Part shown: piece by piece, positions 2,551-27,738 of the stretch | Numbering within the stretch: the first letter of the stretch is position 1 | Layout of the letters: every line of letters begins with the position of its first letter | Assembly: GCA_965195285.1 (NCBI GenBank) | Contig: CBDAFS010000036.1 | Location: forward strand, 1-32,000 | Direction of reading: 5' to 3' | DNA from: an uncultured Aminicenantes bacterium | GTDB lineage: Bacteria; Acidobacteriota; Aminicenantia; UBA2199 | DNA length: 32,000 bases | Translations under genes and position numbers: made by a program | The notes under the pieces: model-generated | Told to the model about the DNA's origin: nothing | Databases searched by the model: none | Seen by the model: only the letters and a program-made list of their open reading frames with translations

Positions 2551-2604
2551 TTAGAAATATTACACTTTGTAACGCCGGTAAATCAGATTCAATCGAAAAG
2601 ATGA

Positions 2605-4716: not shown

Positions 4717-4784
4717 TTTGTCCTCCTTATTATTATAATTCTATAAGTTTTTAATTCTAAATTAAATATGGAATAAAATCAAAT

Positions 4785-4798
4785 TGGACTTTGGTCTA
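4785..4798. promoter_or_regulatory. Copy 1 of a recurrent palindromic motif, TGGACTTTGGTCTA
   Basis: Lies about 75 nt upstream of the 2605..4716 minus-strand start. 13 of 14 positions match the perfect inverted repeat at 7016..7029. Confidence 0.3.
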
Positions 4799-4815
4799 AT
4801 AGAAAAAGTAAATAC

Positions 4816-6198
4816 TTAAAAAGAAAAACCCAGCACCACCATAATACTGGAATAATTAAATTGCACATTATCTATAATGGCCAGCAATTCTTCATCCAGA
4901 CGGTCTCTGATCTGATCCAGGACCAATTCTCTCTTGTTGGTTCCGTAGGAGTATCCAATGCCCAGAGTGATGTTATACTTACTGATACTGAAAATGGCAC
5001 CCGCCATAAAATGAAAAAGATCCCAGTTGGTAATGGTCAGATTGGTTTCACTTACAAGCGATTCCGCTGAGTAATCAGTCCTGAAGCTGGCATAAGCTGC
5101 AAAACGCTTGCCAAAAACATGCTCAATTCCAATGGCAAAATTGAGCACACTATCCACCTCATGGGTTAACGAAAAATCAATCTCTTCGCCACTGGTTTGA
5201 GAATAACTGGTTTCCAGGTCCAAAACATCAAATGTCTTAATAGCCGAATACCACTCTGCACTGAAATACAGCCGGGTCCTTTTCAATTTATAGGTGAAGC
5301 CGAATCCAATCGAGAATGGAGTTGGAAAATGGGAATTCACATCCTGTTGATAGTCAGCAGCCATTTCAGCTTCTCCATTATCAACCTCACCCGGATATTG
5401 ACCGATGGCAGTATTATTATACCCGGCAGTGCCGGTTCCAAATAGCTTGATACTGGGGGTGGTCAGGGTGAATCCCAGGGTCCATTTACTGAAATCAAAG
5501 GCCAAACCCAGCTTCCAGAGAGTTCGGACGTTTAAATACTCGTATTCACCAGAATTCAAGTTAAAGATCATGTCCGTCTGGTCCGGAAGAATCTCTGCAA
5601 CCAATTGGTATTGGGCCTCATGACTGCGATACATAAGATACTGGCTGATACCAACACCAATATTATCCGCAATCTTGTATGCCCAGGTCAATCCAGCCCA
5701 GGTTTCAGACAGGGTTTCATTCAATACAACCCTGGCAAAAACCTCCTCATTTCCGGGAAGTTCTTTTAAAAGGTCAAAAGAATTCACAACGGTCCCGACA
5801 ATATCCAGTTCGACCGAATGACGGGTAAAATATGAATAAGCCAGTATGTACTTCTGCTTGGTTTTCACATTGAGTATCCCGGCCACCATTGATGGCGCGG
5901 GCCTTATGATAGACTCGCTCAATTCGACGTCGGATTCATTCAGATTTTTCATTGAGTATGTCGGATATTGATAAGCCAGGTTAGCCATTAGAACATCGGG
6001 ATCATCCATTAAAGCGAGCCCTCCCGGATTGTAAAAGGTTCCACTGAGGTCCAGAACACCACCGATTACCGATCCACCCAGCAAAGTGGATTTGGTGCCG
6101 TACTGATAGGTCCAGTAATTGGTGTCCTGGGCCAGGGAAAAACGGATTCCAATCACACCAATAAAAAAAACAAAAAGTAAAATTCTGAATCTACACAT
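4816..6198 (-). CDS. Putative outer-membrane beta-barrel protein (family not recognised)
   Basis: ATG start and signal peptide (ILLFVFFIGVIGIRFSLAQ). Alternating amphipathic strands throughout. The C-terminal ...MVVLGFSF has the terminal aromatic residue typical of OMPs. Confidence 0.65.
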   Translation of the reverse strand: MCRFRILLFVFFIGVIGIRFSLAQDTNYWTYQYGTKSTLLGGSVIGGVLDLSGTFYNPGGLALMDDPDVLMANLAYQYPTYSMKNLNESDVELSESIIRPAPSMVAGILNVKTKQKYILAYSYFTRHSVELDIVGTVVNSFDLLKELPGNEEVFARVVLNETLSETWAGLTWAYKIADNIGVGISQYLMYRSHEAQYQLVAEILPDQTDMIFNLNSGEYEYLNVRTLWKLGLAFDFSKWTLGFTLTTPSIKLFGTGTAGYNNTAIGQYPGEVDNGEAEMAADYQQDVNSHFPTPFSIGFGFTYKLKRTRLYFSAEWYSAIKTFDVLDLETSYSQTSGEEIDFSLTHEVDSVLNFAIGIEHVFGKRFAAYASFRTDYSAESLVSETNLTITNWDLFHFMAGAIFSISKYNITLGIGYSYGTNKRELVLDQIRDRLDEELLAIIDNVQFNYSSIMVVLGFSF

Positions 6199-6303
6199 GT
6201 TTTTTCGCTCTCATCTTTTGCATCCAAATAGAGATTCGCATTTGTTTATATCGGATTTAAGAATTCCAATTTCAGAATACAATCAAATAAAAAAAAAATC
6301 AAT

Positions 6304-6317
6304 ACAACTTTAGTCCA
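6304..6317. promoter_or_regulatory. Weaker copy 2 of the recurrent motif, ACAACTTTAGTCCA
   Basis: Lies about 113 nt upstream of the 4816..6198 minus-strand start. 10 of 14 positions match 7016..7029, and the right half-site GTCCA is intact. Confidence 0.2.
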
Positions 6318-6356
6318 ACGGTTTTAGAACGGGCTCAAAAATCGATTTGCTTCGAT

Positions 6357-6896
6357 TTATTTAAAGCGGGGAAATTCTTTCAAAATTTTTGATACGGCTT
6401 CCTGTATAACTGGCTCCAATTCATCAGGAATCAAATCGGGTTCCAATACCTTCTGGGCCACTCCCCGCCAGATCAACTTTTTATCCCCTGCTTTTATAAC
6501 ATCAATAATCAGAGTACTGCCCTCAAAGGCATAGGCATCGATGATCTCCCCCCAATAATCCGACTCTCTCCAGTAGGCTTCGCGGTTGGCATAGTCATAG
6601 CCCCAGTCGGTTATGTTTAAACGGCCCTGTACATAAGTATGCACTGCAATTAAAAGTTTAGGATCCTCCTGAACTTTTAAATACCCCTTGTCTTCCAGAT
6701 TACGGGATATTTCATTTTTCAGAATTTCCATAACTATAGGACTTACCGTAACCGTAGCCGGTATCTTCAGGAAATCAAAACTCTTATACTCAGAAAAATC
6801 CTCCTTCAGGTTGTAATCGTATTTGACCTTCATCGTGGAACAGTTCACCATGAAGAGGAAACCAATCAAAACCATCAAAACAAGAAACTTTCTCAT
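6357..6896 (-). CDS. DUF4136-type lipoprotein
   Basis: Lipobox-like FLFMVNC. The C-terminal part, GSTLIIDVIKAGDKKLIWRGVAQ, matches the DUF4136 signature. ATG start. Confidence 0.7.
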   Translation of the reverse strand: MRKFLVLMVLIGFLFMVNCSTMKVKYDYNLKEDFSEYKSFDFLKIPATVTVSPIVMEILKNEISRNLEDKGYLKVQEDPKLLIAVHTYVQGRLNITDWGYDYANREAYWRESDYWGEIIDAYAFEGSTLIIDVIKAGDKKLIWRGVAQKVLEPDLIPDELEPVIQEAVSKILKEFPRFK

Positions 6897-13778: not shown

Positions 13779-16346
13779 ATGAGTGAAAGAAAATCAACTC
13801 AAAAAGATATTTCCACCATCGTGGTTACCGGGGATGTGGCCGTTGACTGGATGGAAGTTCCAATTTCCCCGGCCCCGATATCCCATGACAACAACAATAT
13901 ACTTAACTGGCAGATCATCCGGGGCGTCCGGCAAATTGCCAGGCCAGGCGGTGCCCTGCTGCTGGCTGATTGGATCAGAGCCTTTACGAAAACAAAGGTT
14001 CTGTCCCCTGCCCTGAAAGGGATCGAAGACATCTCCCCTGAAGAGATTCTTCATTCACTGGTCTGCCTGGACCAATTCCCCTTTACTCAAAGCAGCCAGC
14101 AGAATAAGGTATTCAGAGTCAGCCAATTCAAAGGGTATAGCGGAAATCAAAAACAGACACCCGGGCTCATAAAATTGGCCAGTGATGACCCAAAGGCAAA
14201 AATTCTGGTTCTGGATGATTCCGGTAACGGATTCAGGAATGCAGCCGAAAAATTCTGGCCGGCTGCATTAACAGCTGGAAAACCCGACTGGATTATTTTG
14301 AAAATGAGCCACCCCCTGGTACAGGGAAAGTTGTGGAATAAACTGAGCAAGGATTATCCGGATAAAATGATTCTGGTAGTCAGTGCCGATGACTTACGCC
14401 GGCTGGGGGCAAAAATAAGCCGCAAGGTCTCCTGGGAGCGCACCGCCATGGATTTTGTCTGGCAGATGGCTGCCAATTCCAAACTGATTCCCCTGAATCA
14501 ATGTGCCTGCCTGGTGGTCAGATTCGGAGTGGATGGTGCCATTGTGTATTGGAGAAGAGCCGGGAAGGTAGATGCCCGCCTGTTCTATGATCCGGAAATC
14601 GGTGAAGAAGGTTTTTCCGATTATTGCCCGGGTAGAATGATCGGAATAGGTTCGGTTTTTACCGCCTCTCTGGTGGTTCATCTGGCAGAAAACAGCCTTG
14701 ATAATATAATGCCGGGTATTAGCAAGGGAATTCAGGCTTCGAGACGGTTATGGAAACTGGGTTTTGGCAATGACATGGCCCTGCTGAATTATCCGTTTGA
14801 CCGGCTATTCCATAAAAAAGATATTCAGGAAACTCCCATCATGGATGTGAAAATCCCATCATCCTCACATACCAATAACGCTGATCCCCTTTACTGGTGC
14901 ATTCTCCAGGATATTACTGATTTTGGCCTGGAAAAAGCAGCTATCAATCAGGTAATTTACGGAAAAGATTCCTCCCTGGACCGGGTTCCCCGGGGCCAGT
15001 TCCGTAATTTAATAACCGTTGACCGGTCGGAAATCGAAATTCTGTGCAATATTAGGAATCTGATCCGCGAGTACCTGGACAATCCTAAAATAACCCGTCC
15101 CCTGTGTGTAGCCGTTTTCGGCCCTCCGGGATCGGGAAAGTCTTTTGCCGTTACCGAAGTAGCCAAGAGTGTGTCCCCGGAAAAATTAGCCAAAGATCCC
15201 CTGGAATTCAATCTCTCCCAGTTTGATTCCACTTCGGAACTGATCGCTGCTTTTCACCGGGTGAGGGACGTCACCCTGGAAGGTAAAATTCCCATTGTCT
15301 TTTTTGATGAATTTGATACTGCATTGAACGGTAAATTAGGCTGGCTCAAGTATTTTTTAGCCCCCATGCAGGATGGAAAATTTCGGGAAGGAGAAACGGT
15401 TCACCCCATTGGCCGGGCCATCTTTGTATTTGCCGGCGGCACGAGTTCTACCTTTGCGGCTTTCAGCCGGGAAGAAAAAAAAGACCTGCGAGATCAGGAC
15501 AGGCAATTTTTTGTGGATGCCAAGGGGCCTGATTTTGTCAGCCGTTTGCGCGGTTATATCAATGTAAAGGGTCCGGATCCGGTAGATAAAAAGGACAAAC
15601 ACTATCTGATCAGGCGGGCCATTATCATCCGGTTTTTATTAAAGAAAAAAGCGGCTCATATTTTCAATTCCCGGGGGGAATGCCAGATCGACCCCGGGGT
15701 GCTCAGGGCCCTGATCAAGGTCCCGGAATACAAACACGGCATCCGGTCTATTGAAGCCATCATCGAGATGAGCATGCTGTCCGGACGACCCGGATTTGAG
15801 CAGGCTGCCCTTCCCTCACCCGAACAGCTCATCCTTCATGTGGATGCGGATATGTTTACCCGTCTGGTAACCCGGGATGTGATCCTGGGAGGAGCCAGGG
15901 AAGAAATTGCCCGGGCCATCCATGAAGAGTTTTTAGCCAATAACAAAGGAAAAAAAGAATTGAATAAAAAAACCATGGTTCCATGGGACCAACTCACAGA
16001 ACATTATAAGGGATCCAACCTACGGCAGGCCGAAGATATCCCCCGGAAACTCAAGGCCGTGAACTGTGATTTTGCCCCAATCAAAGACAGAAAGCCTAAG
16101 CTTATAACATTTAATAAAAAAGAGTTGCTATTAATGGCCCAGCTGGAACACGAGCGCTGGGTGAAAGAAAAATTCCTCAATGAATGGAGTTACGGAGAGA
16201 AAAAGGATGAAGTCAAAAAAACCCATCCCTACCTGGTGGAGTGGGAAAAGCTCTCGGAAAAGGAAAAACAAAAAGACATCAATGCAGTAGAAGCCATCCC
16301 CCAGCTCCTGGCCAGCATAGGATTTGAAATATACCGGCTCAAATGA
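13779..16346 (+). CDS. Three-module protein: ribokinase/PfkB-like (probably inactive) N-domain, AAA+ ATPase, C-terminal RyR domain
   Basis: An AAGGAGGA SD lies upstream. The N-domain has IVVTGDVAVDW, RPGGALLLADW (GG motif) and MIGIGSVFTASLV in place of DTxGAGDxF. AAA+ Walker A is VFGPPGSGKSF and Walker B is IVFFDEFDTA. The C-terminal AIHEEF...LEHERWVKEKFLNEWSYG..KKTHPYLVEWEKLSEKEKQKDINAV..IGFEIYRLK is paralogous to the end of the 9713 gene. Confidence 0.85.
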   Translation: MSERKSTQKDISTIVVTGDVAVDWMEVPISPAPISHDNNNILNWQIIRGVRQIARPGGALLLADWIRAFTKTKVLSPALKGIEDISPEEILHSLVCLDQFPFTQSSQQNKVFRVSQFKGYSGNQKQTPGLIKLASDDPKAKILVLDDSGNGFRNAAEKFWPAALTAGKPDWIILKMSHPLVQGKLWNKLSKDYPDKMILVVSADDLRRLGAKISRKVSWERTAMDFVWQMAANSKLIPLNQCACLVVRFGVDGAIVYWRRAGKVDARLFYDPEIGEEGFSDYCPGRMIGIGSVFTASLVVHLAENSLDNIMPGISKGIQASRRLWKLGFGNDMALLNYPFDRLFHKKDIQETPIMDVKIPSSSHTNNADPLYWCILQDITDFGLEKAAINQVIYGKDSSLDRVPRGQFRNLITVDRSEIEILCNIRNLIREYLDNPKITRPLCVAVFGPPGSGKSFAVTEVAKSVSPEKLAKDPLEFNLSQFDSTSELIAAFHRVRDVTLEGKIPIVFFDEFDTALNGKLGWLKYFLAPMQDGKFREGETVHPIGRAIFVFAGGTSSTFAAFSREEKKDLRDQDRQFFVDAKGPDFVSRLRGYINVKGPDPVDKKDKHYLIRRAIIIRFLLKKKAAHIFNSRGECQIDPGVLRALIKVPEYKHGIRSIEAIIEMSMLSGRPGFEQAALPSPEQLILHVDADMFTRLVTRDVILGGAREEIARAIHEEFLANNKGKKELNKKTMVPWDQLTEHYKGSNLRQAEDIPRKLKAVNCDFAPIKDRKPKLITFNKKELLLMAQLEHERWVKEKFLNEWSYGEKKDEVKKTHPYLVEWEKLSEKEKQKDINAVEAIPQLLASIGFEIYRLK

Positions 16347-16368
16347 AAGGTTTCTAAACGAGGATAAT

Positions 16369-18087
16369 ATGTCTGAAAAAAAACTTATCGGACAGATGTT
16401 AATCGAAGCTGGCCTGATTGATCAGGGAAAACTGAATGAAGCATTAAAAGAGCAAAAAAAATCAGGTCAAAAGATCGGGAGTATTTTAATCCGGCTGGGA
16501 TATGTATCTGAAAGTAATATAGCAAAGATGTTGAACAGGCAATTGGGGTATCCTTCAATAAACCTTTCCAAAATAGAGATTGACAAAAAAATCTTAGATT
16601 TATTAAATCCCGAAATTCTCCGGAAGCATACTGTTTTCCCGGTCTACCGAATCGGGTCAACTTTAACCCTGGCCATGGCTGATCCATCAAATTCATTTGT
16701 ACAGGAAGAGATAAGATTTTCAACTAATTTAAGGATTCAAGCGGTTATCGCACCTGAAAGTTCTATTTTTGAAGCCATCGACGAATATTATGGGTCATCA
16801 ACCGGAATTGAACATCGGATGTTTAAGATTGATGAGGTAGAAGCAGAAGAAAATTCGAATTTGGAATTCATGAGCATTGAAGCGGATGAATCATCTGAAT
16901 TCCAAACCAAAAAACCATCAAGCATAACTGATGAAAGTACCAAAAAAGATATTTCAGATATCAAAATAAATACTGATGCTTCGGTTTTCAAAATTAAAAG
17001 CGAGAATACGAATACTGATCTGTTTGAGAAATACAAAACCGATGCATTTAAAAAAAGTGAAGAGGAAAAGCCAATTACTGAAATTGGAAGAGAAGAACGA
17101 ATTACAACAAAATCTAGTGACCTTACTCCGGAGGATATGAAACAAAAATGGCAAACTTGCGGAGGGACTCAAAAATTTAAAAAAACACATACTGAGCGTT
17201 TTAGCTCTCCTTCCAGTATCATTCTTCATCCTTCAGATGTTGAAAATCTCAAAAAAGAAACCGGTGATGAGGTCGATTGTTCGGTCTTCTCACCAGCTGA
17301 AATTTCCAGGAATGAGACTATTATGGTTCAGGTGTTTATCCATCTTCCCGAACAAAAAGAAGAATCCATGGATTTGGCCCGGGAATTCGATGAAGAAACA
17401 TCCAGACGGGGATTTAAGAGCCTGAGTATTCCCGTGGAAAAGGATTCGACATTATCCTTTAATCTGGTATTACCGAAACTTGTGGTTGATGAAACAAACC
17501 AGGAACTGATCTGGAAAGGCCGGCCGGAATCGGTTCAATTCTCTGTATCTGCTTCTGAAGGATGCAGTATCGGAAATACAGTGGGAACGGTGACTATTTT
17601 TAACGGGAGTGTTCCTGTCGGGAATATAAAATTCAAAATAAAAATTTGTGAGGAAAAACAAACTGAAACCATCGATCAAGCCAATCCGATCGGAGAGCAA
17701 GCCAGTAAATTCACCAAGGCTTTCATATCCTATGCTGCCAAAGACCGTGACAAAGTTCTGGCCAGAATCCAGATGATGAAAGTAGTGGGAATAGATTATT
17801 TTCAAGATATTCTGGATCTTGATCCTGGGGTTCGATGGGAGAAAGAACTTTACAAACACATTGATGAATGTGATCTGTTTCTCCTTTTCTGGTCATCTGC
17901 TTCAAAAGAATCAGAATGGGTAATGAAGGAAGTCCGTTACGCCCTGAACAAAAAGGGAGGTGACGATCTTGCTCCACCCGAAATCTATCCGGTTATCATT
18001 GAAGGCCCACCGATTCCCCTGCCCCCACAGGAATTATCCCACCTCCACTTCAATGACCGGATTCTTTATGTCATGGGAAGGGATTAG
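16369..18087 (+). CDS. MshEN/T2SSE_N-like nucleotide-binding domain - acidic linker - beta-rich domain - TIR domain protein
   Basis: I prefer the ATG at 16369 (GAGGA SD at 16358..16362) over the TTG at 16324, which overlaps the upstream gene. The N-terminus carries two 24-residue motifs, LIGQMLIEAGLIDQGKLNEALKEQ and KIGSILIRLGYVSESNIAKMLNRQ, separated by 5 residues (16384..16542). The C-terminal TIR is KAFISYAAKDRD...CDLFLLFWSSASKESEWVMKEV, with a candidate catalytic Glu at 17929..17931. Confidence 0.85.
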   Translation: MSEKKLIGQMLIEAGLIDQGKLNEALKEQKKSGQKIGSILIRLGYVSESNIAKMLNRQLGYPSINLSKIEIDKKILDLLNPEILRKHTVFPVYRIGSTLTLAMADPSNSFVQEEIRFSTNLRIQAVIAPESSIFEAIDEYYGSSTGIEHRMFKIDEVEAEENSNLEFMSIEADESSEFQTKKPSSITDESTKKDISDIKINTDASVFKIKSENTNTDLFEKYKTDAFKKSEEEKPITEIGREERITTKSSDLTPEDMKQKWQTCGGTQKFKKTHTERFSSPSSIILHPSDVENLKKETGDEVDCSVFSPAEISRNETIMVQVFIHLPEQKEESMDLAREFDEETSRRGFKSLSIPVEKDSTLSFNLVLPKLVVDETNQELIWKGRPESVQFSVSASEGCSIGNTVGTVTIFNGSVPVGNIKFKIKICEEKQTETIDQANPIGEQASKFTKAFISYAAKDRDKVLARIQMMKVVGIDYFQDILDLDPGVRWEKELYKHIDECDLFLLFWSSASKESEWVMKEVRYALNKKGGDDLAPPEIYPVIIEGPPIPLPPQELSHLHFNDRILYVMGRD

Positions 18088-18101: not shown

Positions 18102-20048
18102 ATGAATAATTACCCAAATAAAAAATCGGTCATTGAAACCTTCCAGCGGGCCCTGGATCAATCCTCCTTTGTATTAAAAGAAAATCCCGAACTGACATTC
18201 CCCCAGATTTATAACAGGTTATTTCCCGAAATTGAGAAAAAGGGATTATTGTTGGAGAAATTGGAATCAGGGAAAAACAAATATAGCAAACCTTGGCTTA
18301 GAATATTAACTAAACCAAAAAAAACAAATCCTTTAATCAGAACTTTTTCCGGACACAAAGGGATGATAACAGACTGTGCTTTCAACCCCAAGGGAGACAT
18401 AATTGTTTCCTCTGGTATGGACCGGCAACTGAAGATCTGGGATGTGAAGACTGCTAAAGAGATTTCGACTCTAGGAGGACACAACCACGAAGTAACCGGA
18501 TGTGCATTCAGCCCGGATGGCAAACGCATTGTTTCTTCCAGCAAGGATGGCACCGTGAGGATTTGGGAGGTCGGGACATCCAGGGAAATCATAACCATTG
18601 GAGAAGCGTCCGGCGATCAATTATCCGAGGTAACCTTTATGACCTGCTGCGCCTTCAGTCCGGACGGCCAATACATAGCGGCCGGCGACAGTGAAGGAAA
18701 GATTAAACTATGGGATGCGGACAATAGAGAAATGATTCTCGATTTTCAGGGCCACCGATCATGGATCGTGCAACTGGAATTCAGCCATGACTGGAAGCAG
18801 ATTGCCTCGGCCTCATTTGATAATACGATAAAAGTCTGGGATACCATATCAGGCAGGCAAATTGCTGATTTTAAAGGACATCGGGACTTGAGTGATATAA
18901 CCAATTGGATGTCATTTGCCTTCAGTCCTGATGACAAATGGATCATATCATCAAGTTATGATGATTATAAAATCAGGATCTGGGACAGCAGCACCGGCCG
19001 GGAATTGTATACTCTATTTGGTTCCTTTGATGAACACCCGATATGGCATCATGATCATTCAGGCGAGTTTATTTTTTCCGGAAACAAGGAGGGAAAAATA
19101 ACTGCTTGGAGGACAGATGACCGGGCCAGAAATCATTATGAGGGAATGGAAATAGTTACCGTCAGGGGCCATGAAAAAAATATCACATCGTGTTCCATCA
19201 GCCCGTTAGGCAAATATCTGTTAACCGGGAGTGCCGATACCACCATGAAGTTATGGGATGTGAAAAAACTCGTGGATATTGCTGGCTCAAATTATGAAAA
19301 TGACCTGAAGGAACATTCACAAACAGAAAAATTATCCACTCAAAAAAAACACATTGGTGATGGTGAAGAAGTTGATCAAATCAACGTTGAAGAGTTAATA
19401 AATAATTACCAATTATACAAGGGAAATATCGGAGAAAATACCAGTCGGATCTACAGCCCGGACCGTCGCCTTATTGCTTCTGCCTCTTATCACCTGCGAG
19501 AAAAAAAGAAAGAAATTAAAATACTGGATACTGAAACCGGTGAGGAAATTTTAACCCTTGAAGATTGCACCCCGCATAGGATTTTCTCTTTTTTCTTTCC
19601 ACCCGGGGATGTGGATTTTGGGGTATTTTTACAATATCACAGGATTATCAAAGAATACTTGAGAATTGTGAATCTTTCCTTTAGCCCGGATGGGAATCAT
19701 GTGATTGCCTCCAGCGGTGACAGAACCCTGAATATATGGGAGACAAATAGCGGAAGAGAAATTTTTTCACTTAAGGGACATTTTTTTAAAGAATTTGATT
19801 TCGCCTTTAATCCCGAATTTGAAAAAATGGTGATTATTGAGGATGAAAACCATATTTTCGCTCTTGAAAATTTCAAGAAAGACCCGGCAATTAGCTCAGC
19901 CAAAAAAGAAGCAAATAATTTGTACTATGTATGCCCCTATTGCCAGGTAACAAATCCCATAGAAGAATCATCACTGGACCAGGAAATCACCTGTACTTCC
20001 TGTGGGCAGAAAAATAAGCTAAACCCATTTACCATCAAATTGGATTAA
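18102..20048 (+). CDS. WD40 propeller protein, type-A cassette 1 (conserved head, partly degenerate second half, C-terminal zinc ribbon)
   Basis: Head MNNYPNKKSVIETFQRALDQSSFVLKENPELTFPQIYNR...KPWLRILT..LIRTFSGH. Canonical GH...CAFSPDG...WD repeats in the first half. Tail CPYCQ...CTSCGQKNKLNPFTIKLD. Confidence 0.9.
   Translation: MNNYPNKKSVIETFQRALDQSSFVLKENPELTFPQIYNRLFPEIEKKGLLLEKLESGKNKYSKPWLRILTKPKKTNPLIRTFSGHKGMITDCAFNPKGDIIVSSGMDRQLKIWDVKTAKEISTLGGHNHEVTGCAFSPDGKRIVSSSKDGTVRIWEVGTSREIITIGEASGDQLSEVTFMTCCAFSPDGQYIAAGDSEGKIKLWDADNREMILDFQGHRSWIVQLEFSHDWKQIASASFDNTIKVWDTISGRQIADFKGHRDLSDITNWMSFAFSPDDKWIISSSYDDYKIRIWDSSTGRELYTLFGSFDEHPIWHHDHSGEFIFSGNKEGKITAWRTDDRARNHYEGMEIVTVRGHEKNITSCSISPLGKYLLTGSADTTMKLWDVKKLVDIAGSNYENDLKEHSQTEKLSTQKKHIGDGEEVDQINVEELINNYQLYKGNIGENTSRIYSPDRRLIASASYHLREKKKEIKILDTETGEEILTLEDCTPHRIFSFFFPPGDVDFGVFLQYHRIIKEYLRIVNLSFSPDGNHVIASSGDRTLNIWETNSGREIFSLKGHFFKEFDFAFNPEFEKMVIIEDENHIFALENFKKDPAISSAKKEANNLYYVCPYCQVTNPIEESSLDQEITCTSCGQKNKLNPFTIKLD
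19980..20044 (+). repeat. 65-nt type-A tail block, identical to 24979..25043
   Basis: By hand comparison, caggaaatcacctgtacttcctgtgggcagaaaaataagctaaacccatttaccatcaaattgga is identical in both copies. Confidence 0.9.
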
Positions 20049-20074: not shown

Positions 20075-22720
20075 ATGAATAATATTTCAGAAAAAAGAAA
20101 TGTGATCGAAACCTTCCAGCGAGCCCTGGATCAGTCTGCTTTTGTCCTCAAAGAAAATCCCGAACTCACCTTCCTCCAGATCTACAACCGCGCCCAGTGG
20201 AAAACAGAAAAAAATAAATTATTAAAGAATATACTTGATAGAGAAGAAATTAAATTCAAAAAACCCTGGTTAAAACTTATTAGCAGACCCGCAGAAAGTT
20301 CAGCTTATATACGCACTCTCACTGGCCACACTGGGTCTGTAAATGCATGTAAATTCAGTCCAGATGGTAAAAAGATTGTTTCAGCTAGCAATGATAAAAC
20401 TTTAAAAATCTGGGATGTTGAGACTGGGAAAGAGATAACTACTCTAAGAGGCCATACCAGTAGTGTGGAGGATTGTGCTTTTAGTCCTGATGGGAAAAAA
20501 ATTATCTCACGGAGTTATGGGAACACCCTCAAAATATGGGATGCAGAGACTGGAGGATTGATTACTCTGGCATGGCACACTATTGGGCTAAGCACTGGTG
20601 ACGTTTCCCTGGACAACAAAAAAATAGTCTCAGAAAATGAGTTTTTATCTGGTTTAAATTTCGGGGAAGACGAACCCGAAACTCACATGCTATTGGATGC
20701 TGAGACAGGAGAAGAATTAGCCACACTCTCAGACCACGGTAATATTGTGAATTCCTGTGGTTTCAGCCCCGATGGGGAAAAAATTATCACAGGGAGTAGA
20801 GATAACGCCCTCAAGCTGTGGAATTCAGAGACCGGTCGGAAGATTGCATCATTGTCAGGGCATACTGGTTCAGTAAACACCTGTGCCTTTAGTTCAGATG
20901 GGAAGCGTATTGTCTCTGCAAGCTTTGACAGGACTCTTAAAATCTGGAATGCTGAGAATGGCAGAGAACTTTTTACACTCAAAGGTCATAATTGTTCTGT
21001 GATTGCATGTGCTTTCAGCCCGTATGGCACTCGAATATTATCTGAAGATTCACAGAAGACAATCATACTTTGGGATGCTGAGAATGGACACAAAATAGCT
21101 ACCCTCCAAGTAGGTTATGCTGGATATGAAAATCGACCAAGATTAAAATACATCCCTCTCGTACATGCCTTTAGTTCTGATAATAGGCATTTGATTTTTG
21201 CAAGAGATTTTGACAAATCCCTAGAACTGAGGGATGCTAAATCCGGTAAAATGATTGCTACATTGATAGGGCATCCTGATGATGTTTACACCTGTGCATT
21301 TTCCCCGGATAGCAAAAAAATTGTTTCAGGAAGTAATGGTTTGAATAACAACCTCAAGCTGTGGGATACCAAGACAGGAGAAGAAATAGCCACACTCTCA
21401 GGCCACAATTGTTTTGTGAATTGCTGTGCATTTAGCCCTGATGGGAGATGTATTGTCTCTGCAAGCGATGATAAAACTCTTAAAATTTGGGATGCTGAAT
21501 CAAGAGAAGAATTAAGTCTCCCTGTGTGCCATACTAATATTGTGAATTCCTGTGCATTCAGCCCTGATGGGAGACGTATTGTCTCTTCAAGCGATGATAA
21601 AACTCTTAAGCTATGGGATGCTGGGACCGGTGAGGAACTGAGCACTCTCACAGGTCATCCCGACGTTGTGCAAGCCTGTGCTTTCAGTCCTGATGGTAGA
21701 CGAATTTTTTCTGGAGGTAGATCCCAATTTCATCTTGACCCAAATGATATAAAAAACGTAACAAAGCTCTGGGATACAGAAACAGAGATTGACATAAAGA
21801 CTTTCGAAAGTTTTCATGGCTACTTAAGAGCCTGTGCATTCAGTCCCGATGGAAAGTATATTGTTTCTGCTGGTAATACAATGGACTTAAATTTATGGGA
21901 TGCTGAAGCTGGATATGAAACAGACATACTCTCCGGTCATGGTCATTTGGTTAATGGATGTATTTTTAGTCCTGATGGTAGTTATGTGGTTTCTGCAAGT
22001 AATGACAGATCTCTCAAGATCTGGCTTACTGAGACTATTAAGGAGCTTCACACGCTCACAGGTCACCCTGATGTGGTGAATTCCTGTGCTATTTCACCTG
22101 ACGGTAAAAAAATCGTCTCAGGAAGCAATGGTTTTAATAACAACCTCAAGCTGTGGAATACCAAGTCAGGAGAGGAACTGTCCACCCTAGAAGGTCATAC
22201 TGATGATGTAAACGCCTGTACTTTTAGTCCTGATAGTAAGCATATTATCTCTGCAAGCAGAGATAAAACCCTCAAACTCTGGGATGTAAGAACTGGAAAA
22301 GAACTAACTAATCTTAAAGGATATACTTCTGCGGTGAATGCCTGTGCTTTGAGTCCTGATGGAAGACATATTGTTTTAGGGGATCATATGGGATGTATCC
22401 TCCTTCTTTCCATTGAAAATGTTAAGCATTTCATTCCTTATGTAACTTCTGTACGAATAAAGATTTTTGGAAAAAATATTTTTTGGGAAAATAATATCAA
22501 AACAACCTGTAAGTTGTGTGGTAAACGTTTTCCGGTTTCGGATGACATTCTTGATTTGATAAGATCCATTAACCGGAATGCCGGAATCACGCCTGACCAA
22601 TCTCCCTGTCTCAATCTTCCAGACGAAGCCTGGGATGATCCGGTATTGATATCCGAATGTCCCCTCTGTCATAAACCATTAAAATTTAATCCATTTATTG
22701 TGGATAATAAAGATAAATAA
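20075..22720 (+). CDS. WD40 double-propeller protein, type-B cassette 1 (about 14-15 repeats, C-terminal Cys-rich tail)
   Basis: Head MNNISEKRNVIETFQRALDQSAFVLKENPELTFLQIYNRAQW...KPWLKLISRP..YIRTLTGH. Many GHxxxVxxCAFSPDGxxIVSxSxDKTLKxWD units. Tail CKLCGKRFPVSDDILDLIRSINRNAGITPDQSPC...CPLCHKPLKFNPFIVD. Confidence 0.92.
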   Translation: MNNISEKRNVIETFQRALDQSAFVLKENPELTFLQIYNRAQWKTEKNKLLKNILDREEIKFKKPWLKLISRPAESSAYIRTLTGHTGSVNACKFSPDGKKIVSASNDKTLKIWDVETGKEITTLRGHTSSVEDCAFSPDGKKIISRSYGNTLKIWDAETGGLITLAWHTIGLSTGDVSLDNKKIVSENEFLSGLNFGEDEPETHMLLDAETGEELATLSDHGNIVNSCGFSPDGEKIITGSRDNALKLWNSETGRKIASLSGHTGSVNTCAFSSDGKRIVSASFDRTLKIWNAENGRELFTLKGHNCSVIACAFSPYGTRILSEDSQKTIILWDAENGHKIATLQVGYAGYENRPRLKYIPLVHAFSSDNRHLIFARDFDKSLELRDAKSGKMIATLIGHPDDVYTCAFSPDSKKIVSGSNGLNNNLKLWDTKTGEEIATLSGHNCFVNCCAFSPDGRCIVSASDDKTLKIWDAESREELSLPVCHTNIVNSCAFSPDGRRIVSSSDDKTLKLWDAGTGEELSTLTGHPDVVQACAFSPDGRRIFSGGRSQFHLDPNDIKNVTKLWDTETEIDIKTFESFHGYLRACAFSPDGKYIVSAGNTMDLNLWDAEAGYETDILSGHGHLVNGCIFSPDGSYVVSASNDRSLKIWLTETIKELHTLTGHPDVVNSCAISPDGKKIVSGSNGFNNNLKLWNTKSGEELSTLEGHTDDVNACTFSPDSKHIISASRDKTLKLWDVRTGKELTNLKGYTSAVNACALSPDGRHIVLGDHMGCILLLSIENVKHFIPYVTSVRIKIFGKNIFWENNIKTTCKLCGKRFPVSDDILDLIRSINRNAGITPDQSPCLNLPDEAWDDPVLISECPLCHKPLKFNPFIVDNKDK
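22532..22611 (+). repeat. 80-nt type-B tail block matching 27550..27629 with one mismatch (the first 59 nt are identical)
   Basis: By hand comparison, ccggtttcggatgacattcttgatttgataagatccattaaccggaatgccggaatcac is identical in both. A single g/t difference follows, then 20 more identical nt. Confidence 0.9.
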
Positions 22721-22767: not shown

Positions 22768-25047
22768 ATGGATAATTACCCAAATAAAAAATCGGTCATT
22801 GAAACTTTCCAGCGAGCCCTGGATCAATCCGCTTTTGTTTTAAAAGAAAATCCCGAACTCACCTTCCCCCAGATCTACAACCGCGCCCAGGTTCACTTCG
22901 AGGAAAATCCCTTATTGAAAACTGTAGTTCAGGAAGCGGAAAAAAAATTTATAAGACCCTGGTTTTTTATTTCAACCCCTGCCAGAGAGAGCACCGGTTA
23001 CATCCGGTCCTTCGAGGGCCACACCCGGCAGGTAAGATCCTGCGCTTTCAGTCCGGATGGAAAAAAAATTGTATCTGTAAGCTGGGATAAAACCCTCAGA
23101 ATATGGAATACCGAAACCGGAGAAGAACTCAACACCCTGATGGGTCATACCCTGAGGGTAATGGACTGCGATTTCAGCCCGGACGGCAAACTCATTGTCT
23201 CCTGCAGCATGGACAGGACCATCAGGTTGTGGGATTCACACACCGGAAACGAACTCAAGGTGCTGGATGACCAGGACCGATCGATTCGGGCCTGCGCCTT
23301 TGGTCCGAACAGCAGAGACCTACTGACGGCTGCTTCCGGCAATGAGTTCAGCCTCTGGGACATTTCATCCGGAAAGATCATTCTCACTTTTAAAGGTCAT
23401 ACAGATAGAGTTGCTGACTTTGACTTCAGCCCGGATGGGAATCGTATCGTATCGGCCAGCCATGACAAAACCCTCAAAATATGGGACAAAAATACCGGAA
23501 AGGAATTGCACAGCCTGATTGGTCATTCCGATACAGTCACATCCTGTGCCTACCGATCTGACGGGAAACAGATTGTGTCCGCCAGCAGGGATAAAACCGT
23601 CAGAACCTGGAATGCGCTGACCGGTTCCGAGCTCCTGGTCATCACCGCTCATGTGGATGAAGTCACCACCTGTACTTTTGACCCCGAAGGGTCACAAATT
23701 TTGTCCGGCAGCAAGGACACGACCCTCAAACTCTGGGATGCCCGATCCGGTAAAGAACTTTCAACTTTTCAGGGACATTTTTTCAGTGTGGACACCTGCG
23801 CTTTCAACCCTGATGGCAATTATATTCTGTCGGGAAGCGGGGACCGAACTCTGAGACTCTGGAAAGGAGATAAAAAAAGTGAAGAATCAATAACTGCCGG
23901 GGGACATACCAAAAGGGTGAACGTCTGTTCCCTCAGCCCTGACAACAAATATCTCGTAACCGGAAGCCGGGACAAAACCCTCAAGATTTGGGATGTCCAT
24001 TCCGGAGAGGAACTGGCTACCCTGAAAGGACATATCGGGGAGATACGACTTTGTCAATTCAGACCGGACGTTAAAACCTTTGTCTCGGCAGATGATTCCG
24101 TATTCAAACTCTGGGAGGCAGAGCCCGGGGAACTGCGACTCCAATTCGAAGGTTACGATGTAAACATACACCATTTTGACTTCAATTTAAACGGAACCGT
24201 CATGGTTTCTTCAAGTAACGATCATTCCCCGAAACTCTGGAATGCAGAAAATGGACAGGTCATTAAAACCTTTGAGGGCCACAATCAAATTGTATACTTC
24301 TGCTTATTCACCCCGGACAACAAAAAGATTCTTTCAGCAAGCGCTGATAAGACCATTAAGATCTGGGATGTTAAAACCGGTCGGGAACTCAAAACCCTTA
24401 CCGGGCACAACAGCGGAGTTAAGGATTGTTTTCTCAGCCCTGACAGTACGCAAATCATTTCCAGAGATTATGATGATGTTGTTAAGATATGGAATTTTAT
24501 TGAGGGGAAGGAATTGAAAAGCTATTCAGGACACTTAATTGGGGCGTTCAGCCCGGACAGCCGGTTTATTGCCCTGGGAGATACTCACCATGCCATCCGA
24601 ATCCTGGATGCACGAACCTTTGAAACGCTTTTCATCCTCCGCGGTCACAAAGATGATATCAGTGAATTCAAATTCAGTCCCAATGCCAGGTATCTTTTTT
24701 CATCCGATTTTGACCGCGCCATCCGGGTCTGGGATTTGAAAACAGGAGAGCAGTGTGCTGCTTTCAGGGGACATTCTGCCTGGATATCCTGTTTTGCCAT
24801 GACGTCTGATGAAGAAAAAATCGTGATTGGAGACAGTTCGGGCCGGGTGATATTCACCACCCTGAAAAATATTGATTTTGGACCGGCCATTGTCACGGCC
24901 TACCAGGAATCCGATCAGTTGTTCTTTTTCTGCAAATACTGCAATAAAAAAAATACTATTCCGGAATCCTCCACGAGTCAGGAAATCACCTGTACTTCCT
25001 GTGGGCAGAAAAATAAGCTAAACCCATTTACCATCAAATTGGACTAA
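22768..25047 (+). CDS. WD40 double-propeller protein, type-A cassette 2 (about 14 repeats, zinc-ribbon tail)
   Basis: Head MDNYPNKKSVIETFQRALDQSAFVLKENPELTFPQIYNRAQ...RPWFFISTP..YIRSFEGH. WD40 repeats throughout. Tail CKYCNKKN...CTSCGQKNKLNPFTIKLD. Confidence 0.92.
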   Translation: MDNYPNKKSVIETFQRALDQSAFVLKENPELTFPQIYNRAQVHFEENPLLKTVVQEAEKKFIRPWFFISTPARESTGYIRSFEGHTRQVRSCAFSPDGKKIVSVSWDKTLRIWNTETGEELNTLMGHTLRVMDCDFSPDGKLIVSCSMDRTIRLWDSHTGNELKVLDDQDRSIRACAFGPNSRDLLTAASGNEFSLWDISSGKIILTFKGHTDRVADFDFSPDGNRIVSASHDKTLKIWDKNTGKELHSLIGHSDTVTSCAYRSDGKQIVSASRDKTVRTWNALTGSELLVITAHVDEVTTCTFDPEGSQILSGSKDTTLKLWDARSGKELSTFQGHFFSVDTCAFNPDGNYILSGSGDRTLRLWKGDKKSEESITAGGHTKRVNVCSLSPDNKYLVTGSRDKTLKIWDVHSGEELATLKGHIGEIRLCQFRPDVKTFVSADDSVFKLWEAEPGELRLQFEGYDVNIHHFDFNLNGTVMVSSSNDHSPKLWNAENGQVIKTFEGHNQIVYFCLFTPDNKKILSASADKTIKIWDVKTGRELKTLTGHNSGVKDCFLSPDSTQIISRDYDDVVKIWNFIEGKELKSYSGHLIGAFSPDSRFIALGDTHHAIRILDARTFETLFILRGHKDDISEFKFSPNARYLFSSDFDRAIRVWDLKTGEQCAAFRGHSAWISCFAMTSDEEKIVIGDSSGRVIFTTLKNIDFGPAIVTAYQESDQLFFFCKYCNKKNTIPESSTSQEITCTSCGQKNKLNPFTIKLD
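24979..25043 (+). repeat. 65-nt type-A tail block, identical to 19980..20044
   Basis: Same evidence as for the partner copy. Confidence 0.9.
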
Positions 25048-25074: not shown

Positions 25075-27738
25075 ATGAATAATATTTCAGAAAAAAGAAT
25101 AGTGATCGAAACCTTCCAGCGGGCACTGGACCAATCGGCTTTTGTCCTCAAGGAAAACCCAGAACTCACCTTCCCCCAGGTTTACAATCGGGCTCAGTGG
25201 AAAAGAGATAAAAACGAATTACTCAAAAATAAACTCGATTCAGAAGAAAAAAAATTTAAAAAGCCTTGGTTTAAAATTTTAACCAGACCCATAGAAAACG
25301 TTGCTCTTGTTCGTACATTTACCGGGCATACTGATTTCATTAGATTATGTGCCTTTAGCAATGACGGGAAGCGCATTGTATCTACAAGTGAAGATATGAT
25401 GATCATTCTCTGGAATACTGAAACTGGCGAGATTATTAGAATTCTTGATAAATTATACGACGCAAAACCTTTATGTGAATTTAGTCCGGATGGAAAACTC
25501 CTTGTCTCTACAAGCAATAAGAATACCTTAAAAATCTGGGATTCAGTAAATGGATCAGAGATAAAAACTCTTTCAGGTCATAAAGGAAGGCTAACAGCCT
25601 GCTCATTCAATCCGAACGGAAAATATATTATATCTGCAAGTGAAGATGAAACTCTTAAAATCTGGGATACCAAAACTGGAAAAGAATATAAAACTCTTAA
25701 GGGACACGGAAGTACAGTGACCAATTTTGCACTCAGTCAAGATGGAATGTTTATTGTCTCTTCAAGTCTGGATAAAACCCTGAAGCTATGGAATCTAAAA
25801 ACTGGAGAGGAAATTAGAGTTTTTTCAGGTCATAATCATTGGATAGAAGCATGCAAATTAAGCCCTGACATGAAGCGCATTATATCTATAAGCTATTTAC
25901 ATAATGGACGGAATACATTGAAATTGTGGGATGTCAAAACCGTAAAGGAAATCACCGAGCTAAAGGGGCACAGTAATAAAGTTGCAGCCTGTAACTTCAA
26001 CCTTGATGGTAGTCTTATTATCTCTGCAAGTAGTGATAGCGTCCTAAAAATATGGAATTCAAAGGACGGTCAAGAGATCAAAACCCTTAAAGGACATACT
26101 GATAGTGTTTATACTTTTGCATTCAGTCCTGATGGGAAACATATCGTATCTGCAAGTGAAGATAAGACTCTAAAGATATGGAATATAGAAAGTTGTGAGG
26201 AAGTCACTACCTTGAGGGGTCATGCTGAATTTGTATATGCCTGTTCTTTCAGTGCTGACGGGAGATATATTATTTCTGGAAGTGGAGATCATACCTTAAA
26301 ACTCTGGGATGTAAACTCCGCAATTGATATTAAATATCATGAAGGGCATACCAATGAGGTAAATGATTGTGAATTCAGTTATGACAATCATCATATCATC
26401 TCGGCTAGCAATGATAAAACCCTGAAACTTTGGGATGTTGAATCTGGGCAGGAGATCAACACTGTAAAAGGACACACTGAAGCTGTTAAAGCCTGTGTTT
26501 TTAGCCCGAATGGAAAAAAATTTTTTTCAGTTAGTGAAGATAAAAAAATCAAGATATGGAATGCCGAAAGTGGTATGGAACTTGACATGCTCGAAGGTCA
26601 CACCGAGAAGATTTATTGCTGTGCATTGAGTCCTGATGGCAGGAGAATTGTCTCTGGCGGTGGATTATTTGATTATGAAAAACCGGCATTTGGTGAATTA
26701 AAGCTGTGGGATACGGAGTCCAAAAATGAGCTTAGAACCCTCAAAGGACACACAGAACCAGTAAATATCTGTTCATTTAGTCCAGATGGAAAACATATTG
26801 TATCTGGAAGTAATGATAAAACCCTAAGGATATGGGAATCCCAGACCGGCGAAGAGATCAGCCGCTTTGAAGGTCATACCGGACATATAAGTGCCTGCGT
26901 TTTCAGCCCGGATGGCAGGCACATTGTCTCAACTGGGGGAGTTTATGACGGAAACCTTCGTATTTGGGACATTAAGACTGGGAATGAAATAATTTCTGGT
27001 TACGGGCATAGGTATGGCGTACATACATGTGATATCAGTCCAAACGGCAGGTTTTTCGTATCTTCAGGTGGAGATCAGACAATCAAATTATGGGAAGCCA
27101 AAACAGGTAGGAATGTCAATGATCTTAAAACTCACATTCAATGGGTGGGGACCTGCTCATTCAGCCCAGATGGAAAATATCTTATTGCAGCAAGCGACAG
27201 ATACAATGCCCAAAGATTTCATTCATCAAAACTTATCTCAATCTCAGCTGATACAATGAAACTTTGGAATATAAAAACAGGGATTGATAATATTACCCTT
27301 AAGGGTCATACGGGCCGTGTAAGGGTATGTAAATTCAGTCCTAGTGGAAGACGAATAGTTATTGCTGATAAATCAGGCCAAGTTTTAATCATTTCTATAG
27401 AAAATTTTGAAATATCAGTTCCAATTGTCACAGCGGTTCGACTAATACTTTTTAAGCCTATTGGGATATTTTGTAGGGCAATCACAAGAAACAGACAATA
27501 TTGGGATGAAAACATCACAGCAGTCTGTCTTTGGTGTGGGAAGCGGTTCCCGGTTTCGGATGACATTCTTGATTTGATAAGATCCATTAACCGGAATGCC
27601 GGAATCACTCCTGACCAATCTCCCTGTCTTCATCTCCCAGACGACGCCTGGGGAGAACCCAGACTTATTTCAAAATGTCCCCTCTGCCATAAACCCTTAA
27701 AATTTAATCCTTTTATCGTGGATAATCGGGATAAATAA
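25075..27738 (+). CDS. WD40 double-propeller protein, type-B cassette 2 (about 15 repeats, Cys-rich tail)
   Basis: Head MNNISEKRIVIETFQRALDQSAFVLKENPELTFPQVYNRAQW...KPWFKILTRP..LVRTFTGH. WD40 repeats throughout. Tail CLWCGKRFPVSDDILDLIRSINRNAGITPDQSPC...CPLCHKPLKFNPFIVD. Confidence 0.92.
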   Translation: MNNISEKRIVIETFQRALDQSAFVLKENPELTFPQVYNRAQWKRDKNELLKNKLDSEEKKFKKPWFKILTRPIENVALVRTFTGHTDFIRLCAFSNDGKRIVSTSEDMMIILWNTETGEIIRILDKLYDAKPLCEFSPDGKLLVSTSNKNTLKIWDSVNGSEIKTLSGHKGRLTACSFNPNGKYIISASEDETLKIWDTKTGKEYKTLKGHGSTVTNFALSQDGMFIVSSSLDKTLKLWNLKTGEEIRVFSGHNHWIEACKLSPDMKRIISISYLHNGRNTLKLWDVKTVKEITELKGHSNKVAACNFNLDGSLIISASSDSVLKIWNSKDGQEIKTLKGHTDSVYTFAFSPDGKHIVSASEDKTLKIWNIESCEEVTTLRGHAEFVYACSFSADGRYIISGSGDHTLKLWDVNSAIDIKYHEGHTNEVNDCEFSYDNHHIISASNDKTLKLWDVESGQEINTVKGHTEAVKACVFSPNGKKFFSVSEDKKIKIWNAESGMELDMLEGHTEKIYCCALSPDGRRIVSGGGLFDYEKPAFGELKLWDTESKNELRTLKGHTEPVNICSFSPDGKHIVSGSNDKTLRIWESQTGEEISRFEGHTGHISACVFSPDGRHIVSTGGVYDGNLRIWDIKTGNEIISGYGHRYGVHTCDISPNGRFFVSSGGDQTIKLWEAKTGRNVNDLKTHIQWVGTCSFSPDGKYLIAASDRYNAQRFHSSKLISISADTMKLWNIKTGIDNITLKGHTGRVRVCKFSPSGRRIVIADKSGQVLIISIENFEISVPIVTAVRLILFKPIGIFCRAITRNRQYWDENITAVCLWCGKRFPVSDDILDLIRSINRNAGITPDQSPCLHLPDDAWGEPRLISKCPLCHKPLKFNPFIVDNRDK
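27550..27629 (+). repeat. 80-nt type-B tail block matching 22532..22611
   Basis: Same evidence as for the partner copy. Confidence 0.9.

Follow-up and report, generated by a model that had tools for sequence, protein, structure and literature searches.

The 32,000-nucleotide stretch of the Aminicenantes contig CBDAFS010000036.1 analyzed in this work, called the window, carries a gene (16369..18087, + strand; all coordinates are window positions) whose product joins an N-terminal MshEN domain to a C-terminal TIR domain in one chain, and which is called MshEN-TIR below. It belongs to an array of closely spaced genes that all run in one direction: the upstream gene ends at 16346, the downstream gene starts at 18102, and no terminator-like site was found on the + strand between 13779 and 19600. 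The ATG at 16369 was preferred to an upstream TTG at 16324 as the start codon because a Shine-Dalgarno-like GAGGA (16360..16364) lies 4 nt ahead of it. The features of the gene and of its neighbors are listed in Table 1.

The initial annotation of this gene, made from the letters alone, described two 24-residue MshEN motifs separated by the spacer KKSGQ, the rest of the T2SSE_N fold, a charged linker, a beta-rich domain and a TIR domain with a conserved Glu. This description was confirmed in every detail: translation places the motifs at residues 6–29 and 35–58; the Pfam MshEN (PF05157) and TIR_2 models both match, PF05157 covering residues 59–145; and the AlphaFold2 model of residues 291–572 contains a beta-sandwich with high predicted local distance difference test (pLDDT) values. 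The interpretation attached to these observations is partly supported, as discussed below. The architecture had also seemed unfamiliar as a defense effector, and a literature search indeed returned no description of an MshEN-TIR fusion and no paper treating MshEN (or T2SSE_N) and TIR together in a relevant sense. PADLOC gave only TIR-level matches for MshEN-TIR and nothing for the RyR proteins of the window, so that this is not a catalogued system.

Table 1. Features of the MshEN-TIR gene and of the surrounding gene cluster (aa, amino acids).
Position	Strand	Feature	Basis
16369..18087	+	MshEN-TIR, complete open reading frame: MshEN, linker, beta-sandwich, TIR	572 aa plus stop, uninterrupted translation
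16384..16455	+	MshEN_N motif 1, residues 6–29, LIGQMLIEAGLIDQGKLNEALKEQ	10 of 11 relaxed-motif positions
16456..16470	+	Spacer KKSGQ, 5 residues, residues 30–34	Spacer length as in the 53-residue MshEN_N unit (PMC5013675)
16471..16542	+	MshEN_N motif 2, residues 35–58, KIGSILIRLGYVSESNIAKMLNRQ	11 of 11 relaxed-motif positions
16543..16803	+	MshEN_C (T2SSE_N alpha/beta subdomain), residues 59–145	Pfam MshEN PF05157, E 1.1e-22
16810..17262	+	Acidic/Lys-rich low-complexity linker, residues ~148–298	No family match; occurs only in three orthologues
17263..17658	+	Beta-sandwich domain, residues ~299–430, first half of the C-terminal cassette	AlphaFold2, pLDDT 94–97
17713..18084	+	TIR domain, residues ~449–572	TIR_2 match, residues 452–561
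17929..17931	+	Codon of Glu521, predicted catalytic Glu (SEWVMKEV)	Invariant in family alignments
7209..9560	+	DUF4062 (TIR-like NADase)-NACHT STAND NTPase	Pfam scan
9713..11509	+	Membrane TrkA_N(RCK)-RyR protein, 598 aa	Pfam scan
11555..13744	+	ClpA/ClpB-like double AAA+ ATPase	Profile matches
13779..16346	+	Ribokinase/PfkB-like domain-AAA+-RyR protein (AAA-RyR), 855 aa	RyR, E 1.1e-16; AAA; AlphaFold2 and Foldseek for the N-domain
18102–20048	+	WD40 paralogue	Domain scans
20075–22720	+	WD40 paralogue	Domain scans
22768–25047	+	WD40 paralogue	Domain scans
25075–27738	+	WD40 paralogue	Domain scans

The MshEN domain is a receptor for cyclic di-GMP (c-di-GMP) in the ATPase MshE, and its 24-residue motif, in the relaxed form [RKPN]hGxxhhxx[GAS]hhxxxxhxxxhxx[QNKRYWST], constrains 11 positions (Wang et al. 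2016, PMC5013675). Over both motifs of MshEN-TIR, 21 of the 22 constrained positions agree with it, the departure being a Leu at position 1 of motif 1; such a two-motif match is far beyond chance. The ligand-contacting residues (a hydrophobic residue at position 2, Gly3, Leu/Ile17, Leu21 and Gln24) are all present in both motifs. The NCBIfam model NF053729, 'c-di-GMP_motif', covers residues 7–58 with 64.2 bits (cut-off 38, E 6.8e-18), and the c-di-GMP-bound domain of MshE (5htl_A) aligns with residues 4–141 (E 4.7e-23). The ATPase domain of PilB and GspE (PF00437) gave no match to MshEN-TIR in the Pfam scan, and TIGR02538 scored 102 bits against a cut-off of 676, over residues 7–179 only. By every sequence criterion but position 1 of motif 1, MshEN-TIR belongs to the MshEN family.

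In the initial annotation, the Leu in motif 1 and the Lys that opens motif 2, both in place of the canonical Arg, were taken as a hint of a ligand other than c-di-GMP. This idea was rejected as unsupported. The Lys is allowed by the relaxed motif and was inherited, since PilBs of the parental clade open their two motifs with K-I-G and K-L-G (67–69 bits with NF053729). Leu6 is encoded by CTT, the two close orthologues have TGT (Cys) and CGT (Arg) at this codon, and CTT and TGT are each one nucleotide from CGT. Because the Lys is the ancestral state and Leu6 a single-nucleotide, lineage-specific variant, a changed ligand specificity is not indicated. In addition, the motif Arg contributes by hydrophobic stacking on the guanine, and its mutation shifts the affinity at most about fivefold (PMC5013675). 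The motif-defining positions other than position 1 are identical in MshEN-TIR and both orthologues, while several unconstrained positions vary, and motif 1 retains the canonical Gly of the turn together with the hydrophobic pair (EAGLI), where the nearest PilBs carry Asn, Arg or Lys. With 64 bits in NF053729 against 67–69 for those PilBs, the MshEN half of the protein looks as binding-competent as the PilB domains from which it came, and most likely still binds c-di-GMP.

Judged from its sequence, the N-domain is a recent copy of the PilB N-terminus. Its best relatives of solved structure are those of Geobacter PilB (5zfr/5tsg, E ~1e-31), and its residues 63–150 are 80–82% identical to one PilB clade, against 52–59% for residues 1–62. 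The two parts also differ in synonymous divergence (dS) from the orthologues, which is 0.8–1.0 for MshEN_N (codons 1–58) and 0.16–0.18 for MshEN_C (codons 59–147). This contrast suggests a mosaic history, possibly with gene conversion from a resident pilB. The ratio of nonsynonymous to synonymous divergence (dN/dS) against the two orthologues is 0.14 for MshEN_N, 0.11–0.12 for MshEN_C, 0.16–0.18 for the beta-sandwich and 0.07–0.08 for the TIR, and is highest, at 0.32–0.40, for the disordered linker; all domains are under purifying selection.

A word-indexed search of 5.8 billion proteins, in which 8000 candidates were scored, recovered two full-length relatives of MshEN-TIR, P0001 (88% identity) and P0002 (86%). 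HMMER, run exhaustively over 1.84 billion cluster representatives, gave no full-length match outside the lineage of MshEN-TIR, and the GTDB species set held no close relative (best 57%). The closest named homologues of the PilB-like N-domain, as of the neighboring AAA-RyR (68–75% identity), belong to Candidatus Aminicenantes.

At the other end of the protein, TIR_2 matches residues 452–561 with 64.8 bits (cut-off 28, E 1.4e-17), and a profile of the family matches the TIR domains of 9m0n (8.4e-10), of Cat1 (9mud, 5.6e-5) and of flax L6 (5e-4). The conserved Glu of the initial annotation, Glu521, is invariant in the family alignments of 49 and 80 members. Its counterpart in flax L6 and Cat1 is the conserved Glu of their S-x-W-C-x-x-E helix motif, which we take to be the catalytic residue of TIR NADases. 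Trp517 and the FISY/LFWS core vary little or not at all throughout the family, and the TIR part of the AlphaFold2 model shows a flavodoxin-like alternation of strands and helices. MshEN-TIR can be assigned to the TIR_2 family with a predicted catalytic Glu, and its TIR domain most likely consumes NAD+, either to deplete it or to produce an ADP-ribose-derived signal.

The beta-sandwich and the TIR together form a cassette of about 272 residues (~299–572) with the signature VDC(S/T)VF...FISYA..DR...LFLLFWS...WV..E...EGPP...HFND. The cassette is 40–60% identical to that of 47 proteins with differing N-termini and is C-terminal in all 47 of them. The best 150 of the representatives searched all match the cassette region, which is C-terminal in nearly all. 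One-genome-per-species GTDB contigs yielded 276 relatives, in Nostoc and other cyanobacteria, Acidobacteriota, Planctomycetota, Victivallales, Gemmatimonadota and others. Among the 49 and 80 family members, the N-terminal partners found by Pfam are Ser/Thr kinases (~12%), a second TIR (~12%), TPR, WD40, FHA and MshEN. Single cases include cNMP_binding (P0015), which is another second-messenger receptor, a caspase (P0025), a PilM/FtsA-like domain (P0023) and a complete FtsZ/tubulin with FtsZ_C (L035:8771-10828). The FtsZ-cassette gene itself stands in an array with TIR-TPR, another TIR (369 aa), DUF4062-NACHT and WD40 genes. From this variety of partners, the cassette is treated here as an output module accepting many inputs. 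The fold of its first half was compared with the PDB by Foldseek, which returned only generic beta-sandwiches (Ig-like, CARDB, complement MG, ZU5; E ~1e-5). None of them pointed to a specific function, and the likeness to ZU5, as in the FIIND of NLRP1, was too weak for use.

A search for conserved operon partners of the cassette, over 1086 open reading frames of 82 loci, mostly recovered Nostoc synteny and generic families (histidine kinases, ABC ATPases, ArgRS, RibD), and such partners were discarded. Among the neighbor links of these 82 loci, those to RyR, NACHT and WD40 alone cross phyla. In 15 Nostoc loci (e.g., L011:8922-9476), the gene immediately upstream of the cassette gene encodes a NUDIX hydrolase, which may be no more than genus-level synteny.

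All three of these neighbor families surround MshEN-TIR. DUF4062 is reported to be a TIR-like NADase, and human NWD1 and TEP1 have the architecture DUF4062-NACHT-WD40 (bioRxiv 10.64898/2026.05.01.722283). The four WD40 paralogues of the window share a near-identical N-terminal region of about 40–75 aa; at their C-termini are zinc-ribbon-like Cys-x2-Cys tails, of which two kinds alternate. Residues ~10–350 of AAA-RyR (13779-14830) have no Pfam or PDB sequence match; they were modeled as a ribokinase/PfkB-like domain (pLDDT ~85–90), for which Foldseek returned HldA, pseudouridine kinase and ribokinase (E ~2e-8, TM ~0.5–0.57). The modeled presence of a sugar/nucleoside kinase-like domain beside a domain of the type that binds cyclic ADP-ribose (cADPR) is suggestive. 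RyR-repeat domains of phages bind or cleave 2'/3'cADPR, the signals of Thoeris, and both preprints on this subject deal with phage proteins only, not with host-encoded RyR (PMC13232231; bioRxiv 2026.06.04.730250). Both RyR domains of the window carry an H-x-x-W motif which, judged by eye, resembles the ligand-binding pair H129/W132 of the phage protein RyR Tad. On either side of the array are apparently unrelated genes: DUF481, Omp85/POTRA and DUF4136 lipoprotein-like genes on the - strand (76-6896) and, at 27948-31964, a calcineurin-like phosphoesterase (28870-29685) and four open reading frames (703, 460, 249 and 686 aa) without a Pfam match.

Related loci show which genes travel together. 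Locus L089, whose AAA-RyR is 90% identical, holds DUF4062-NACHT, TrkA_N-RyR, ClpAB and AAA-RyR, and open reading frames of 60 and 612 aa without a Pfam match (L089:12565-14848) stand there in place of the MshEN-TIR gene. L090, from Aminicenantes, holds TrkA_N-RyR, AAA-RyR and DUF4062-NACHT-TPR, and DUF4062-NACHT co-occurs with AAA-RyR in L002, L004, L089 and L090. L002 (462-1481) and L003 have an extra gene for a 339-aa TIR before MshEN-TIR; a remnant of a WD40 N-terminus, of 39 codons, lies directly ahead of DUF4062-NACHT in both (L002, 3260-3376). The locus is fluid between near-identical lineages, and MshEN-TIR is a variable accessory of a core made of DUF4062-NACHT, WD40 and two RyR proteins, not a stand-alone effector.

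The AAA-RyR family itself is large (>1200 hits, ~850 aa), with named members in Ca. Aminicenantes, Desulfomonile, Planctomycetes and others. Its neighborhood was surveyed by tblastn (1e-4) in metagenome loci L091–L170, of which 39 are well flanked (at least 6 kb of flank); many of the neighborhood contigs are short. A DUF4062 or TIR gene lies within 10 kb of AAA-RyR in 23 of these 39 loci. TrkA_N-RyR is paired with AAA-RyR in 11 of them, besides L089 and L090. Of 80 further loci with AAA-RyR, just one holds the ClpA/B-like gene, which is present in L089. Cassette genes of other phyla have RyR proteins nearby as well. In L004 (Victivallales), AAA-RyR and DUF4062-NACHT flank a TPR-cassette gene, and a RelA/SpoT-like nucleotidyltransferase is fused to TPR and SLOG (L004:13191-15389); in L072, a RelA/SpoT-like nucleotidyltransferase protein near a cassette gene ends in a RyR domain (8064-10997). 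L056 holds a gene for a kinase-cassette protein along with a TrkA-RyR-like one, and in L085 a RyR protein is near the cassette gene. SLOG and RyR thus appear in equivalent positions and interchangeable, as a role in receiving signals would predict, and by analogy with the phage domains the host RyR (PF02026) proteins may serve to receive TIR signals.

The idea of the initial annotation that a cyclic-dinucleotide receptor is coupled directly to a TIR stands as an architecture. Its principle is not new, because a c-di-GMP receptor and a TIR NADase in one chain are already known from the bacterial CBASS effector TIR-STING, in which the ligand drives TIR assembly and NAD+ cleavage (PMC9402430). 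TIR-STING is the closest functional analogue of MshEN-TIR, with the same single-chain logic. However, its STING receptor is not homologous to MshEN, it has no beta-sandwich between sensor and TIR, and its ligand is made by a CD-NTase of the operon, for which no counterpart was found in the window. Cat1 (CARF-TIR), which is also among the best structure matches of MshEN-TIR, and TIR-SAVED follow a similar logic of sensor and TIR, but with CARF or SAVED sensors and cyclic oligoadenylates supplied by Cas10 or a CD-NTase. Pfam scans detected no CD-NTase or Cas10 signal synthase among the window open reading frames of at least 120 aa, and Pfam, NCBIfam and PADLOC detected no STING, SAVED or CARF domain in MshEN-TIR; the best PADLOC match, to the SAVED_TIR model (E 1.5e-8), is weak and concerns the TIR part alone. 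On these sequence grounds MshEN-TIR is a member of neither TIR-STING, Cat1 nor TIR-SAVED.

On the side of the sensor, MshE and PilB share the 53-residue two-motif unit and MshEN_C with MshEN-TIR, their output being an ATPase and here the TIR cassette (PMC5013675). The partners of MshEN reported in that work are REC, HD-GYP, CheA, CheX, cyclase and kinase, with TIR not among them. MshEN can allosterically regulate a fused enzyme other than an ATPase, as in the glycosyltransferase NfrB (PMC10118264), whose output differs from the TIR cassette of MshEN-TIR. On the side of the neighborhood, Thoeris also places a TIR protein (ThsB) beside a protein with a signal-binding domain (ThsA, with a SLOG/Macro sensor); here two adjacent proteins carry RyR, a fold that binds 2'/3'cADPR in phage proteins, and L004 has SLOG. 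The window differs in having no ThsA and in adding the NACHT STAND and WD40 proteins, and its receivers would be RyR-domain proteins, known until now only from phage counter-defense; matches of MshEN-TIR to ThsB models are weak (PADLOC, E 5.6e-8; Pfam ThsB_TIR, E 0.03). The neighbors look like a version, split over several genes, of the DUF4062-NACHT-WD40 proteins, such as human NWD1/TEP1 and bacterial Swarozyc (bioRxiv 10.64898/2026.05.01.722283). This likeness concerns the neighbor genes and not MshEN-TIR, and the WD40 proteins of the window are separate paralogues with zinc-ribbon tails.

We propose, with a probability of roughly 0.4, that MshEN-TIR is a TIR enzyme controlled by its MshEN domain, with c-di-GMP as the most likely ligand, and that it feeds a Thoeris-like pathway with RyR-domain receivers. 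As input, the MshEN copied from PilB, the ATPase of the organism's type IV pilus, would bind c-di-GMP of the cellular pool. Binding would alter the conformation or self-association of MshEN, acting through the long flexible linker, and this change would permit or prevent the TIR-TIR assembly required for activity. As output, the TIR of the cassette would consume NAD+, depleting it or making an ADP-ribose-derived signal, and the product or the depletion would act in concert with the two RyR proteins and the DUF4062-NACHT/WD40 sensor. Because phage RyR domains bind 2'/3'cADPR, it is TrkA_N-RyR and AAA-RyR that would probably receive the TIR product, in a Thoeris-like logic, and the membrane protein TrkA_N-RyR would be a plausible executioner. 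That the cluster is, more specifically, a TIR-signaling immune pathway in which DUF4062-NACHT and accessory TIRs such as a c-di-GMP-gated MshEN-TIR make a cADPR-type signal, received by the host TrkA_N-RyR and AAA-RyR, is unlikely on the present evidence; if true, the RyR repeat would be an ancestral receptor module for ADP-ribose-derived messengers, and MshEN-TIR would wire a housekeeping lifestyle messenger, c-di-GMP, directly into an NAD+ pathway of immunity or cell death.

Several observations weigh against an MshEN-gated TIR enzyme of this kind. Pfam scans of all window open reading frames of at least 120 aa detected no GGDEF, EAL, HD-GYP or CD-NTase, so that any c-di-GMP would come from the general pool of the cell, which raises the question of self-activation. 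Motif 1 has no Arg or Lys at position 1, which varies between Leu, Cys and Arg among close orthologues. To our knowledge, MshEN does not oligomerize or form filaments upon ligand binding, unlike STING, SAVED and CARF. The TIR part of the AlphaFold2 model is of moderate confidence (pLDDT 56–88). The MshEN-TIR gene is absent from L089 and is thus dispensable for the core system, and the association of RyR with TIR was measured by tblastn relative to a roughly estimated background and with no formal random-locus control.

A further point of this kind comes from the survey of fusions among the 150 best representatives, where four other clusters (P0129, P0171, P0211 and P0122) have an N-terminal MshEN-like domain, and the chain of P0122 also includes DUF4062. 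Their N-domains are far less similar to that of MshEN-TIR than PilBs are, which argues that the fusion of MshEN with the cassette arose more than once. In these proteins the motifs are degenerate. NF053729 gives 35.8, 31.1 and 21.8 bits for P0129, P0171 and P0211, below the cut-off of 38, and no match for P0122; in the first three, the guanine-hydrogen-bonding Gly of motif 2 is replaced by Gln, Ala or Val. These changes resemble those listed by Wang et al. for the non-binder XpsE, and the fusion can evidently persist without a canonical binding site. Binding of c-di-GMP is, to judge from these motifs, not a general property of the MshEN and cassette architecture, and among such fusions only the lineage of MshEN-TIR looks capable of it.

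The surroundings of these fusions are varied. In L085:5014-12147, the degenerate gene of P0211 overlaps the end of a gene for a 996-aa M48-peptidase-like protein and faces, as its immediate neighbors, genes for a cNMP-binding protein and for a single 744-aa protein made of RyR, TPR-S and guanylate-cyclase domains, an arrangement in which a relay from a TIR signal through RyR to a cyclic nucleotide is possible. Bax-inhibitor-1-family membrane proteins are encoded near two independent MshEN-cassette genes (L085:4125-4835; L087:11293-12042), which may be a coincidence. No type IV pilus genes were found near any MshEN-cassette locus, and a pilus link through gene neighborhood was dropped.

The same degenerate fusions, which keep the fold while the c-di-GMP motifs decay, are compatible with an MshEN kept for protein contacts instead of c-di-GMP. 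As a look-alike of the PilB N-terminus, it would tether the TIR to the pilus platform, or it would be an integrated decoy for phage proteins that target PilB, whose binding would cluster and activate the TIR. Such a docking or decoy role is unlikely. It agrees with the copies of core machinery carried by cassettes elsewhere, FtsZ/tubulin with FtsZ_C (L035) and the PilM/FtsA-like domain (P0023). The high identity of MshEN_C to PilBs and its dS below that of MshEN_N fit ongoing gene conversion from pilB, and the neighboring NACHT/WD40 genes resemble systems of nucleotide-binding leucine-rich repeat receptors (NLRs). Integrated domains are a known concept in plant NLRs. T2SSE_N domains are also known to act in docking, as in the PilB-PilZ-FimX complex (PMC8389850). 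On the other hand, the ligand-contact positions are intact and under purifying selection in the lineage of MshEN-TIR, and motif 1 is closer to the canonical form than that of the parental PilBs, which would be unexpected if docking alone were important. Pilus genes are missing near all the MshEN-cassette loci, and the commonest N-domains of the cassette (kinase, FHA, TPR, WD40, cNMP-binding) are signaling modules, not phage targets.

Another explanation, which we hold to be decidedly unlikely, makes the TIR of MshEN-TIR chiefly a homotypic assembly module that joins an oligomer of TIR or TIR-like domains nucleated by DUF4062-NACHT and WD40, with catalysis left to DUF4062 or other TIRs and with MshEN regulating or localizing the protein. 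Several TIR proteins do occur side by side in related arrays (L035, and the extra TIR directly upstream in L002 and L003), P0122 combines MshEN, DUF4062 and the cassette, and a second TIR is present in about 12% of cassette proteins. The conservation of Glu521, Trp517 and the FISY/LFWS core, however, is of a degree found more often in enzymes than in pure scaffolds, and cassette genes adjoin NACHT genes in just 5 of 83 loci. Very unlikely, finally, is a physiological, non-immune role in which a c-di-GMP-controlled NAD+ consumer ties the sessile or motile state to dormancy or community programmed cell death without any phage: c-di-GMP is a housekeeping lifestyle signal, no infection-specific cyclase was found in the window, and the cassette occurs chiefly in filamentous cyanobacteria, Acidobacteriota and Planctomycetota, with Ser/Thr kinase and FHA partners, but the flanking DUF4062-NACHT, WD40 paralogues, extra TIRs and RyR, with presence and absence between near-identical contigs, look like a fast-changing conflict locus, and those DUF4062 and TIR systems tested so far function in phage defense (bioRxiv 10.64898/2026.05.01.722283).

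If MshEN-TIR is indeed an MshEN-gated TIR enzyme, it would respond to c-di-GMP, the messenger that generally marks the sessile or motile state. It would show physiological state feeding NAD+-based death or signaling, and would extend the known outputs of MshEN by a class of enzyme. The ligand-gated TIRs known to us (TIR-STING, TIR-SAVED and Cat1) all answer to messengers made only upon infection. Of possibly greater importance is the wider result: the beta-sandwich and TIR cassette is a common plug-in output for many input domains, and host RyR proteins are linked to TIR and TIR-like NADases across many phyla. Given that phage RyR domains bind cADPR isomers, this linkage makes the host RyR proteins candidates, open to direct test, for a new family of proteins that receive TIR signals.

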